The notes beneath the pieces are model-generated. The model ran no database searches. It worked only from the letters and a program-made list of their open reading frames with translations, and was not told where the DNA came from. This document shows positions 14,365-19,938 of a DNA stretch of 19,938 nucleotides, piece by piece. The stretch is from a virus (taxonomy: Duplodnaviria; Heunggongvirae; Uroviricota; Caudoviricetes). Position 1 is the first letter of the stretch. Every line of letters starts with the position of its first letter. The translations under genes were made by a program, and so were the position numbers. Location: the IMG/VR virus record IMGVR_UViG_2711768019_000002. One strand, 5' to 3'.

Positions 14365-18045
<3,681 letters not shown>

Positions 18046-18071
<26 letters not shown>

Positions 18072-18591
18072 TCAGCAACCCCGGTATCAGTTCATCCAGC
18101 GCGGCTGCTTTGTTCATGGCTTTGATGATATCCCGTTTCAGGAAATCAACATGTCGGTTTTCCAGTTCCGGAAAACGCCGCTGCACCGACAGGGGGATCC
18201 CGTCGAGAATACTGGCAATTTCACCTGCGATCCGCGACAGCACGAAAGTACAGAATGCGGTTTCCACCACTTCAGCGGAGTCTCTGGCATTTTTCAGCTC
18301 CTGTGCGTCGGCCTGCGCACGCGTAAGTCGATGGCGTTCGTACTCAATAGTCCCTGGCTGGAGATCTGTCTCGCTGGCCTGCCGCAGTTCTTCAACTTCC
18401 CGGCGCAGCTTTTCGTTCTCAATTTCAGCATCCCTTTCGGCATACCATCTTATAACGGCGGCAGAGTCATAAAGCACCTCATTACCCTTGCCACCGCCTC
18501 GCAGAACGGGCATTCCCTGTTCCTGCCAGTTCTGAATGGTACGGATACTCGCACCGAAAATGTCAGCCAGCTGCTTTTTGTTGACTTCCAT
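18046..18591 (-). CDS. Nu1: Terminase small subunit Nu1
   Basis: 181-aa ORF MEVNKKQLADIFGASIRTIQNWQEQGMPVLRGGGKGNEVLYD..., lambda gpNu1 length, with N-terminal HTH region. Confidence 0.97.
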
Positions 18592-18599
18592 TGTTCATT

Positions 18600-18830
18600 C
18601 CACGGACAAAAACAGAGAAAGGAAACGACAGAGGCCAAAAAGCCCGTTTTCAGCACCTGTCGTTTCCTTTCTTTTCAGGGGGTGTTTTAAATAAAAACAT
18701 TAGGTTACGGCGAAGAAGAACGGAAACGCCTTAAACCGGAAAATTGTCATAAATAGCGAAAACCCGCGCGCCTTCCGCCCCGTAACCTGTCGGATCGCCG
18801 GAAAGGACCCGCAAAATGATAATAATTATC
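18600..18830 (-). other. cos packaging site: cosB (Nu1-binding repeats R1 ~18612-18633, R2 ~18653-18678, R3 ~18711-18730, with an AT-rich IHF-type segment between R2 and R3), cosN core 18769-18780, cosQ-side flank to ~18830
   Basis: Inverted and direct copies of the GAAAGGAAACGACAG-type element. The flanks GCGAAAACCCGCG and CGTAACCTGTCGGATCGCCGGAAA match the lambda cos junction from memory. The 12-nt core here is CGCCTTCCGCCC on the plus strand. Confidence 0.8.
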
Positions 18831-18979
18831 ATCTACATGTCACAACGTGCATCTACGCCATCAAACCACGTCAAATAATCAATTATGACGCAGGTATCGT
18901 ATTAATTGATCTGCATCAACTTAACGTAAAAACAACTTCAGACAATACAAATCAGCGACACTGAATACAGGGCAACCTC

Positions 18980-19213
18980 ATGTCAACGAAGAACAGAACC
19001 CGCAGAACAACAACCCGCAACATCCGCTTTCCTAACCAAATGATTGAACAAATTAACATCGCTCTTGTTCAAAAAGGGTCCGGGAATTTCTCAGCCTGGG
19101 TCATTGAAGCCTGCCGCCGGAGACTGTGCTCAGAAAAAAGAGTTTCGCCTGAAGCAAACAAAGAAAAGAGTGACATTACTGAATTGCTCAGAAAACAGGT
19201 TAGACCAGATTGA
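18980..19213 (+). CDS. Small basic DNA-binding-like protein, probable ribbon-helix-helix fold; resembles YnfO/YlcI-family (DUF3950) proteins of E. coli lambdoid prophages
   Basis: 77-aa ORF MSTKNRTRRTTTRNIRFPNQMIEQINIALVQKGSGNFSAWVIEACRRRL... Basic N-terminus, then a predicted beta-strand and two helices. Family assignment is from memory, not a search. Confidence 0.55.
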   Translation: MSTKNRTRRTTTRNIRFPNQMIEQINIALVQKGSGNFSAWVIEACRRRLCSEKRVSPEANKEKSDITELLRKQVRPD

Positions 19214-19270
19214 AGCAATTTAGATAATCGTGCAGACTACGCCCCCTCATATCACATGGAAGGTACTACA

Positions 19271-19681
19271 ATGGCTCAGGTTGCCATTTTTAAACAAATA
19301 TTCGATAAAGTGCGAAATAATTTAAACTATCACTGGTTTTATTCTGAACTAAAACGTCACAATGTCTCACATTACATTTACTATTTAGCCACAGAGAATA
19401 TTCATCTTGTTCTTGAAAACGATAATACGGTTTTAATAAAAGGACAGGGTAAGGTTGTAAATGTAAGATTTTCAAAAAATAAATGCCTTATAGAAGCCAC
19501 CTTAAAAGGATTCAAATCAGGAGAGTTATCATTTTACGAATACAGGAAAAATCTTGCTACAGCAGGGGTTTTCAGATGGATTACAAATATCCACGAAAAC
19601 AAAAGGTATTACTATACCTTTGATAATTCATTACTCTTTACTGAGAACATACAGAACACTACACAAATATTTCCGCACTAA
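19271..19681 (+). CDS. Hypothetical protein resembling the YdfO/YbcV family (DUF1398) found next to cos in E. coli lambdoid prophages
   Basis: ORF 19256-19681. The ATG at 19271 ([45 protein letters not shown]...) has GGAAGG ~9 nt upstream. Family assignment is from memory. Confidence 0.55.
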
Positions 19682-19726
19682 ATCATAACGTCCGGTTTCT
19701 TCCGTGCCAGAACCGGACTCGCTGGC

Positions 19727-19936
19727 ATGATGAAATATGTGTACCCGGTAACCCCGGTGTGCATCGTTTTTGATTATTCCCGCACACTCGCGCAGAAGGA
19801 GTTCCCCGTCGGGCTACGGTCTCTGTTAATACGGGAATACGGCGACGATTGGATTTGCCCCTATATTTCCAGACATCTGTTATCACTTAACCCATTACAA
19901 GCCCGCTGCCGCAGATATTCCCGTGGCGAGCGATAA
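19727..19936 (+). CDS. Unassigned small ORF (69 aa); doubtful
   Basis: MMKYVYPVTPVCIVFDYSRTLAQKEFPVGLRSLLIREYGDDWICPYISRHLL... No recognisable motif and no clear SD. Overlaps an Arg-rich minus-strand ORF. Confidence 0.2.
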   Translation: MMKYVYPVTPVCIVFDYSRTLAQKEFPVGLRSLLIREYGDDWICPYISRHLLSLNPLQARCRRYSRGER

Positions 19937-19938
19937 CC

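Follow-up and report, generated by a model that had tools for sequence, protein, structure and literature searches.

The stretch of DNA analysed here (19,938 nt, in the following called the window) carries the packaging genes Nu1 (18046–18591) and A (16146–18071) on its − strand, as identified from the ORF list and a Pfam search. By aligning the window to HK629/lambda and to E. coli 582 we located the cohesive-end segment of cosN at 18769–18780, which reads CGCCTTCCGCCC on the + strand and differs at five of its 12 positions from the lambda segment AGGTCGCCGCCC. Also conserved in this alignment is the heptamer AGGACCC at 18804–18810, the reverse complement of GGGTCCT in lambda, whose position we take to be cosQ, and on this basis we call the heptamer cosQ-equivalent. 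About 170 nt past it starts a ynfO-like gene (18980–19213, + strand) encoding 77 aa (MSTKNRTRRTTTRNIRFPNQMIEQINIALVQKGSGNFSAWVIEACRRRL...), which is followed in the same direction after 42–57 nt by a gene encoding a DUF1398 protein of 136 aa (19271–19681, + strand). The spacing depends on the start of the second gene, as an alternative ATG at 19256 would give 141 aa (19256–19681, + strand); the ATG at 19271 is the start chosen by NCBI PGAP and is preceded by the Shine–Dalgarno-like sequence GGAAGG. The ORF list and the cos alignment thereby confirm a preliminary description of this DNA, which had placed two small ORFs beyond cosQ on the strand opposite to Nu1/A.

Family membership and coding potential

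Both proteins could be assigned to families by the Pfam searches that the preliminary description had proposed. The 77-aa protein matches DUF3950 (PF13132) with an E-value of 2e-20 and 72.8 bits over profile positions 1–30 of 30 (curated cut-off 25 bits) and the NCBIfam model YlcI_YnfO_N (NF041551) with 35.2 bits (curated cut-off 30 bits), and it is found in PHROGs as a match to phrog_949 (6e-33). By these family models, both cut-offs of which are exceeded, it is a member of the YlcI/YnfO family. It is basic (pI 10.9) with a variable C-terminal tail and shows 97% identity over all 77 residues, with two amino-acid changes, to YnfO from the Qin prophage of K-12 (b4533). There ynfO lies next to the Nu1 homolog nohA in the same layout as in the window (nohA–ynfO–ydfO), and the region upstream of ynfO is identical including the FNR box described below. 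The YlcI type of lambda and DLP12 is 64 aa long and its C-terminal tail differs from the window protein after residue ~50.

For the second protein, which had been described as DUF1398-like (YdfO/YbcV), the assignment was correct, as it matches PF07166 with 3.3e-43 and 147 bits over profile positions 1–119 of 119 (curated cut-off 22 bits) and the NMR structure of K-12 YdfO (PDB 2HH8) with 1.4e-69 over residues 1–140. Judged by these matches it is a member of the YdfO/YbcV/lambdap78 family. It shares 76% identity with K-12 YdfO, which is encoded at the same place downstream of ynfO and with the same PdhR-box region, and also 76% with lambdap78 of lambda, which is listed in the database with 177 aa owing to an N-terminal extension of the gene call. 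K-12 YcgX is more distant (44% identity) and stands alone without a DUF3950 neighbour. Against the K-12 and lambda copies the window gene shows a dS of 0.4–0.7 and is a distinct allele. An AlphaFold2 model of the DUF1398 protein built with 17 close homologs (pLDDT 48.6) was discarded, as a Foldseek search with it missed even 2HH8.

Both reading frames are under purifying selection according to their substitution patterns. The dN/dS of the DUF1398 gene is 0.21–0.35 against four relatives. For the ynfO-like gene the comparison within E. coli is uninformative on coding selection in its 5' half, because the DNA from ~18866 to 19125 is 98–100% identical among the window phage, lambda and K-12 Qin. 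Across genera, however, DUF3950 proteins keep the same motifs at 36–57% identity in a stop-free frame with a pN/pS of 0.17–0.32, and conservation is lower in the antisense frame. In the DNA of Stx phages, homology to ynfO sets in exactly at the ATG.

Neither protein contains a hydrophobic segment, which leaves the labels 'head protein' and 'envelope protein' used in databases unsupported here, and they should be dropped. The product of the DUF1398 gene is best explained as a soluble cytoplasmic protein. A literature search, as far as sources could be reached, gave no molecular function for the DUF3950 or the DUF1398 family, in agreement with the earlier statement that neither protein is structural or has an established function. 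PADLOC showed no defence-system match above noise for both proteins, and a match to HEPN_AbiA_CTD (E 0.014) below the cut-off was taken as noise. From the literature it is known that lambdap78 is dispensable for lytic growth in a lambda CRISPRi screen, that stress strongly induces the mRNA of ydfO in K-12 (116-fold by qPCR, in cells that kept growing) and that overexpression of YdfO was reported to raise the resistance to oxidative stress.

Predicted fold of the YnfO-like protein

A ribbon-helix-helix (RHH)-like pattern had been noticed in the 77-aa protein. This reading is supported by the predicted structure, in which a strand (residues ~13–17) and two helices (19–32 and 37–55) form a strand–helix–helix core with a conserved turn and helix cap as in the RHH fold, and by two fold searches with this structure, whose match lists are dominated by RHH proteins. 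The antitoxin-like option of the preliminary description resembles these fold-search matches. At the sequence level, in contrast, no link to a curated RHH family was obtained. Pfam RHH models gave no match with E ≤ 10 to 17 DUF3950 members, phmmer and profile searches of PDB sequences with the YnfO-like protein found no RHH family, and hhalign of the YnfO family resulted in probabilities of only 3.8% for Arc and 0.3% for CopG. PHROGs gave a weak HicB-like match (E 0.055). The YnfO-like protein thus shares with Arc/Mnt/CopG and with the antitoxins ParD, KacA, TacA and RelB the predicted core, the turn and helix cap (NFS), the small size and a basic N-terminal arm, but it differs from all of them in having no detectable sequence-level relationship and from the RHH antitoxins in that the YnfO family has no conserved partner toxin. 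It is most likely a dimeric, sequence-specific DNA-binding regulator. The proposed role as a regulator is plausible, while the proposed antitoxin-like role is contradicted, as DUF3950 and DUF1398 do not co-occur.

Host regulator sites upstream of both genes

The ynfO-like gene is preceded by a perfect FNR box (TTGATCTGCATCAA, 18906–18919), which begins 74 nt upstream of the ATG and is the single match in the window to the exact consensus TTGAT-N4-ATCAA. One such box is present per lambda-type locus and always at the same position, and its flanks are 100% identical between the window and K-12. The identical K-12 site between nohA and ynfO is bound by FNR in vivo as shown by ChIP-seq and ChIP-chip, with a peak in all data sets and a PWM score of 16.68, one of the two highest among the rows listed (PMC3688515). 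In Table S9 of Myers et al. the FNR peaks at nohA/ynfO and ylcI/nohB are listed without an expression change of the neighbouring operons in their medium. The same box lies upstream of the divergent DUF3950 homologs L043 and L082, and Salmonella and Citrobacter have it in front of divergent homologs whose upstream regions appear otherwise dissimilar by eye. These shared arms had at first suggested that the palindrome is an operator for YnfO itself, an idea that was dropped because its sequence is precisely the FNR consensus and FNR occupies the identical site of K-12 in vivo.

A sigma-70 scan upstream of the ynfO-like gene found no ordinary −35/−10 promoter above chance. Two candidate −10 elements can be read from the + strand, GACAAT (18941–18946) and TACAAT (18945–18950), and their distance of 21–25 nt from the FNR box resembles the spacing of a class II FNR promoter. 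Lying behind a consensus FNR box, the ynfO-like gene is probably turned on under oxygen limitation.

Upstream of the DUF1398 gene, and overlapping the last codons of the ynfO-like gene, we found a PdhR-box-like palindrome (AACAGGTTAGACCAGAT, 19194–19210) as the sole match in the window to WWNNGGTNNNACCNNWW, with 0.17 matches expected. Aligned with the K-12 Qin site AAcaGGTcagACCAgaT, which was recovered in vitro by genomic SELEX with PdhR (PMC7660256), it shows a single mismatch, located in the spacer. The SELEX peaks are located at ynfO/ydfO and at ybcV/ybcW, and the mRNA of the DUF1398 homolog ybcV is 10-fold lower in a pdhR mutant (PMC7660256). The experimental data all come from K-12 cryptic prophages and not from the window phage. 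The palindrome is overlapped by a candidate promoter-like site (TAGACC-16-GATAAT, 19201–19228, + strand) from the sigma-70 scan, with a modest score that is reached by about one site per 930 nt. Terminator-like sites were found neither between nor after the two genes, and a hairpin at ~19690–19716 considered as the terminator of the DUF1398 gene is no more stable than shuffled sequence (z −0.85). Rfam gave chance microRNA matches only for 18400–19938.

Probable accessory gene cassettes next to cos

To the preliminary description, the absence of homologs or disrupted ORFs in close relatives would have spoken against real genes, and it had suggested looking at the conservation of the pair next to cos. 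Homologs are abundant, and the pair is intact and syntenic with fixed spacing in all 77 informative viral contigs. Annotations of the pair exist in thousands of E. coli genomes, and part of a 1.3-kb segment comprising cos, both genes and the downstream flank was matched in 5211 of the 5426 complete genomes (median of four places each). Among the neighbours of the pair are Nu1 homologs of 40–100% identity. The gene content at this site varies among related phages, as expected for so-called morons, with three arrangements at the junction of lysis and packaging genes: ynfO and DUF1398 (window, Qin), ylcI, ybcW and ybcV (lambda, DLP12), and DUF3950 alone (Stx phages). The base composition is unlike that of the surrounding phage genes as well, with a GC content of 0.30–0.35 for the DUF1398 gene, an AT-rich island, and 0.39–0.46 for the ynfO-like gene compared to 0.52–0.56 for Nu1/A. 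The location had been described as typical for prophage cargo, and this view fits with the strand opposite to the late operon, the low GC content of the DUF1398 gene, the host FNR and PdhR sites and the dispensability of lambdap78.

From their distribution the two genes look like separate cargo units and not like an obligate pair, because DUF1398 neighbours are missing from all 41 divergent DUF3950 loci (as are Nu1 or A nearby, also 0 of 41), Stx phages carry DUF3950 alone, ycgX is solitary, and in lambda and DLP12 an insert of 560 bp with an opposite-strand gene separates the ylcI-type from the DUF1398 gene. The junctions of this insert in lambda lie just past the RHH core and just ahead of the PdhR box.

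The favoured description of the locus, with a probability of roughly 60%, is that the right end of a lambda-like prophage carries two independent moron cassettes, which are both transcribed against the late operon and apparently connected to metabolic regulators of the host. The first cassette would consist of the ynfO copy behind its FNR box, probably induced at low oxygen, and its product, small, basic and of the RHH type, would most likely be a regulator that binds specific DNA sequences as a dimer. The second would comprise the PdhR box, the weak promoter and the DUF1398 gene of the ydfO/ybcV/lambdap78 type, giving a soluble cytoplasmic protein that is not needed for lytic growth. Both would be tied to the metabolism of the host instead of the lytic programme of the phage, and they may benefit the lysogen. 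The arrangement is similar to bor and lom, morons of lambda that are expressed in the lysogen and are also small genes embedded in the late operon or lying beside it. The orientation of bor is that of the window pair, and both morons are likewise dispensable for lytic growth (CRISPRi); the window pair has in addition an atypical base composition. While products and lysogen phenotypes have been demonstrated for bor and lom in the literature, the window pair is putative lysogen cargo as judged from its sequence and from the homologs in K-12 cryptic prophages.

The window genes are thus close copies of K-12 ynfO and ydfO and represent real, very common and host-regulated cargo of an ordinary kind. 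The ORFs can now safely be assigned in annotations to the YlcI/YnfO family and to DUF1398, respectively. Both genes are among the commonest prophage genes of E. coli, yet they belong to the uncharacterised 'y-ome', and the two cassettes offer a testable frame in which the oxygen-sensing FNR would act on a small RHH protein and the pyruvate-sensing PdhR on DUF1398, both signals being relevant to life in the gut. Lambda phages escaping the Vulcan defence lose lambdap79 via recombination with Qin and thereby gain the window-type arrangement, which shows that the region is a live hot spot of recombination and selection.

Alternative explanations

Instead of being neutral cargo, YnfO-type RHH proteins might control the operon that they face, namely the packaging operon or cos in phages and icd-primase in satellites, and a prophage might for example keep its terminase silent or protect cos in this way. 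In lambda-type phages the ynfO-like gene is indeed arranged head-to-head with Nu1-A across cos, in Stx phages a DUF3950 gene is head-to-head with the unrelated packaging module HNH-TerS-TerL at a distance of 41 nt, and in P4-like and capsid-forming PICI satellites it is head-to-head with Icd-like/primase genes, with two to three palindromes of 14 bp in the divergent region that vary with the protein subfamily; GGTGT-N4-ACACC repeats occur in satellites. Furthermore, in two proteins from databases DUF3950 is joined to the N-terminal region of a small terminase subunit (Terminase_2). However, these fusions are limited to two database entries (P0180 and P0213), and a relative with 76% identity to the N-terminal part of P0180 is unfused; of two scans of viral contigs for their genomic context one found nothing and the other only the unfused relative. 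The lone palindrome of this kind in the window is the FNR box, whose K-12 counterpart is occupied by FNR (PMC3688515), so that no YnfO operator is visible near cos, and the lambda CRISPRi screen is uninformative for the YnfO-type ORF. In lambda, late transcription starts at a distant promoter and not in the cos region, which also counts against control of the packaging operon. Cargo is known to insert preferentially where lysis and packaging genes meet, so that the position beside the packaging genes is explained without a packaging function, and we consider control of the facing operon to be rather unlikely. There is an even slimmer chance that DUF3950 RHH proteins represent one regulator family common to lambdoid helpers, where the gene is head-to-head with the packaging operon and controlled by host FNR, and to the P4-like or capsid-forming PICI satellites parasitising these helpers, where it is head-to-head with icd-primase and has the operator-like palindromes alongside. 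The satellite gene also lies wholly inside a stop-free frame of 200–440 codons on the other strand, and this could be a true antisense gene overlap. If phage and satellite copies did recognise related DNA, this would point to a cross-talk between helper and satellite or to a guarding of operons that are harmful when expressed at the wrong time.

It is unlikely that the pair forms a type II toxin-antitoxin-like module, with YnfO as the RHH-type antitoxin and its C-terminal tail as the part neutralising the DUF1398 toxin encoded downstream, and we regard this possibility as very doubtful even though two small co-directional genes with a putative DNA-binding protein encoded first and the weak HicB-like match would fit such a module. 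The two families do not occur together as neighbours across taxa, and the 560-bp insert of lambda and DLP12 not only parts the genes but also replaces the tail of YnfO, the would-be toxin binder, while DUF1398 stays ~76% identical. The PdhR box and the candidate promoter between the genes would permit expression of DUF1398 without YnfO, the strong induction of ydfO takes place in growing cells, its overexpression is reported to be beneficial under oxidative stress, and neither protein stood out in PADLOC.

The idea that one or both ORFs are non-coding, with the near-identity around the 5' half of ynfO reflecting only a function of cos-proximal DNA or recent recombination, can practically be dismissed in view of the conserved DUF3950 motifs and stop-free frame in other genera, the start of the Stx-phage homology at the ATG, the dN/dS of the DUF1398 gene and the solved structure of its K-12 homolog.

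Results and Discussion

Identity and location of the two genes

The window carries a lambda-like prophage in reversed orientation, with the terminase genes A (16146–18071) and Nu1 (18046–18591; both from the ORF listing and Pfam) on the minus strand. On the plus strand we recovered the peptide strings quoted in the preliminary description in two ORFs of 77 aa (18980–19213) and 141 aa (19256–19681); an internal ATG of the latter at 19271, preceded by the ribosome-binding sequence GGAAGG, gives 136 aa, and NCBI PGAP starts the gene at the equivalent ATG in relatives. At 77 aa, the first protein is 97% identical to YnfO of E. coli K-12 and is recognised by the family models Pfam DUF3950 (2e-20), NCBIfam YlcI_YnfO_N and phrog_949. 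The second protein covers the entire Pfam DUF1398 model (3.3e-43) and also hits E. coli YdfO, solved by NMR (PDB 2HH8, 1.4e-69), which bears out its proposed DUF1398-like (YdfO/YbcV) identity; the 136-aa form shares 76% identity with K-12 YdfO, 76% with lambda lambdap78 and 44% with K-12 YcgX. The cryptic K-12 prophage Qin has the same layout, with the Nu1 homologue nohA on one strand and ynfO then ydfO on the other. Both genes are already known, namely as the ynfO–ydfO pair of E. coli prophages, and the preliminary description was essentially right in finding and interpretation.

Of 5426 complete E. coli genomes, 5211 contain matches to part of a 1.3-kb segment comprising cos, both genes and the downstream flank, at a median of four sites each; there the genes carry the annotations ‘YlcI/YnfO family protein’ and ‘DUF1398 domain-containing protein’. 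At 50% identity the narrow DUF3950 family comprises 108 clusters out of 1.8 billion representatives, and relatives sharing 36–57% identity come from other Enterobacterales and from a single Pasteurellaceae strain. Both genes also turn up as near-identical lambda-type copies in Streptomyces, Cohnella, Pedobacter, Staphylococcus and spider assemblies (fetched loci L009–L040, L059, L074 and many ENA contigs), often on contigs of ~3.5 kb or ~48.5 kb and often with frameshift-like errors; they suggest contamination of the assemblies by lambda DNA from controls or spike-ins and inflate the apparent spread of both families.

Alignment with lambda and HK629 places the 12-nt cohesive-end segment of cosN at 18769–18780 and the cosQ equivalent, an AGGACCC heptamer, at 18804–18810. 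The cohesive end differs from lambda at 5 of 12 positions (GGGCGGAAGGCG versus lambda GGGCGGCGACCT, lambda orientation), cosB and cosQ sequence on its flanks is nearly identical to lambda, and the variant is also present in E. coli strain 582. At 2517–2847, well upstream of the gene pair, 331 consecutive positions are N (masked or unknown bases). Similarity to related prophages ends at 19849. As part of a two-piece hit to E. coli LR-71-1, the final ~89 bases (~19850–19938), which resemble an IS2 end, match one terminus of an IS3-family element there; an insertion sequence thus seems to lie ~170 nt past the stop codon of the DUF1398 gene.

Predicted fold and upstream sites

An AlphaFold2 model of the YnfO-type protein, built on 17 diverse members, shows an extended segment (residues 14–18) and helices at 19–32, 37–55 and 59–73 (pLDDT mean 69.5, core 70–81). 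The best E-value of a Foldseek search against the PDB was 1.3, and almost all of the top 50 hits are ribbon-helix-helix (RHH) proteins, among them NikR, ParD2, MazE, VapB, Arc, KacA, AtaR, HicB, NikA, CdbA, YiiF and MatP. The conserved K-x-I-R-F-P strand and N-F-S-A-W-V turn/helix cap are consistent with the RHH pattern. As fold matches and pattern fit while sequence methods linked the family to no curated RHH family, we keep the earlier term ‘RHH-like’ as a moderately strong inference from structure and not as demonstrated membership.

The palindrome TTGAT-N4-ATCAA has its sole copy in the window at 18906–18919, 74 nt before the ynfO ATG. Among 170 fetched loci the exact motif is found once per lambda-type locus at the same position, and the palindrome recurs upstream of divergent homologues in Salmonella (TTGATTCAGATCAA) and Citrobacter (TTGATATAAATCAA), whose upstream sequences otherwise show no similarity to the window by eye. 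For these reasons it was initially read as a YnfO operator. This reading was rejected, as the palindrome matches the FNR consensus and the K-12 site, whose sequence is that of the window including flanking DNA, has FNR ChIP peaks: Myers et al. (2013) found peaks at nohA/ynfO and ylcI/nohB in all data sets, with the top PWM score (16.68) among the rows retrieved from the supplementary tables (PMC3688515). Both peaks are listed without FNR-dependent expression change in the medium of that paper (PMC3688515), so that FNR binding is established in K-12 and regulation by FNR is putative. The hexamers GACAAT and TACAAT, both -10-like, follow 21–25 nt after the box, with a similar spacing in the Salmonella locus, and the arrangement resembles a class II FNR promoter, making it a candidate for one.

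The window has a single PdhR-type palindrome (expected 0.17), AACAGGTTAGACCAGAT (19194–19210), upstream of the DUF1398 gene, with a modest promoter-like site overlapping it. This palindrome is one spacer base apart from the Qin site that genomic SELEX with PdhR identified; that study also reports a site lying between ybcV and ybcW and, on mutation of pdhR, a 10-fold decrease of ybcV mRNA (PMC7660256). We favour, with a probability of about 0.6, two independent host-wired cargo cassettes: in one, the FNR box would drive a small DNA-binding regulator of predicted RHH fold, and the other would consist of a PdhR-linked DUF1398 protein.

The proposed cargo character agrees with a GC content of 0.30–0.35 over the DUF1398 gene versus 0.52–0.56 in the terminase genes, with late transcription running antisense to both genes, and with a CRISPRi screen across the lambda genome that scored lambdap78 as non-essential (PMC10695390). 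Under ionic-liquid stress ydfO mRNA increased 116-fold (qPCR), and YdfO overexpression raises oxidative-stress resistance according to a report cited there (PMC4077768). The listing of ydfO as ‘essential by TraDIS only’ (PMC5821084) we read as an insertion-cold, AT-rich, multi-copy region and not as true essentiality. DUF1398 is labelled ‘head protein’ in PHROGs (phrog_413) and several RefSeq phages, and lambdap78 ‘putative envelope protein’. These labels are unsupported, and both proteins lack a hydrophobic segment (Kyte–Doolittle maxima over 19 residues 0.75 and 0.39).

One unit or two

The evidence speaks against the two genes being one unit. No DUF1398, Nu1 or A homologue lies within 6 kb of any of 41 divergent DUF3950 loci, K-12 ycgX is a DUF1398 gene standing alone, and Stx phages (Pankowvirus type) carry DUF3950 without DUF1398, head-to-head with an unrelated HNH–TerS–TerL packaging module. 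The lysis/packaging-junction position of DUF3950 is thus kept across unrelated packaging systems, and the gene pair also adjoins Nu1 homologues of merely 37–50% identity. That the protein regulates or guards the facing operon is unlikely in our view. The Stx gene (L168 4001–4228, Stx2a_WGPS8 and other Stx1/Stx2 phages) is 68% identical, lacks the FNR box and starts 41 nt from the start of the HNH endonuclease gene heading the HNH–TerS–TerL operon.

In lambda and DLP12 a 560-bp insert with an opposite-strand gene (lambdap79/ybcW) separates the two genes, its junctions in lambda lying directly after the RHH core and directly before the PdhR box. Because of the left junction, the 64-aa YlcI-type ORF of lambda has a different tail; it adjoins cos (HK629 locus L001, 389–583; J02459 complement, ~48109–48303) and corresponds to no annotated feature in the J02459, HK629 and HK630 records. 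A toxin–antitoxin-like pair would suit the fold matches, which are mostly antitoxins, but the separate occurrence of DUF3950 and DUF1398 and the lambda insert argue against it, and we regard the suggested antitoxin-like role in such a pair as improbable. The inserted lambdap79 (ybcW-like; L001 748–954), not found in the window, reportedly activates the Vulcan NADase defence system, and lambda escapers lose it via recombination with Qin (bioRxiv 10.64898/2026.09.04.749371), which yields the gene arrangement found in the window.

Non-coding sequence is practically out of the question. The DUF1398 gene shows dN/dS values of 0.21–0.35 against four alleles (dS 0.38–0.67), and the 77-aa ORF is intact, 275–276 nt upstream of DUF1398, in all 77 viral contigs with sufficient upstream sequence. 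The 5' half of ynfO and the region upstream are 98–100% identical among this phage, lambda and Qin, so that comparison within E. coli is uninformative on coding selection. Across genera I15, I25, F37, W40, V41 and C45 are invariant, pN/pS of the DUF3950 frame is 0.17–0.32 (two ungapped core segments) and this frame is conserved better than the antisense frame on all measures computed. In Stx phages DNA homology to ynfO begins exactly at the ATG.

DUF3950 in satellites and fusions

The window itself is of low interest, and only the satellite observations might reward more work. About half of the divergent DUF3950 loci are P4-like or capsid-forming PICI satellites with the order integrase, AlpA, AntA/Bro, DUF3950 (other strand), Icd-like, primase-helicase, in agreement with a recent Enterobacter survey listing ‘YlcI/YnfO family protein’ among capsid-forming PICI genes (PMC13612085). 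The satellite DUF3950 ORF lies wholly within a stop-free opposite-strand frame of 200–440 codons ending in the Icd-like domain (L046, L048, L049, L051, L052, L057, L058, L060–L062, L069, L073, L076, L078–L080, L164, L169, L170). This antisense frame has 9 stops in 16 non-satellite loci versus none in 16 satellites, with the DUF3950 frame still better conserved; it may be a genuine antisense overlap, or else an open frame without explanation. In satellites the two frames share their third codon positions, and some submitters annotated the long antisense ORF instead, for example as ‘transcriptional repressor’ in Pasteurella ‘phage’ Pmp7.

Within 160 nt upstream of the satellite DUF3950 genes, where the divergent region faces the Icd-like gene (e.g. 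L042, L061, L069, L073, L080, L164), there are two to three 14-bp palindromes (GGTGT-N4-ACACC, TGTGCGCACA, ATGGTAGTTACCAT), whose arm sequence varies from one protein subfamily to another; one of them adjoins a -10-like TATAGT. Compared with shuffles, even-spaced 5-N-5 palindromes are enriched 3.5-fold, and the satellite palindromes could be putative RHH operators. In two database proteins, P0180 (129 aa) and P0213 (120 aa), an N-terminal DUF3950 is fused to sequence matching the Terminase_2 small-subunit model over its first ~50 positions, and residues 1–59 of P0180 have a 76%-identical relative that is a stand-alone protein of 60–71 aa.
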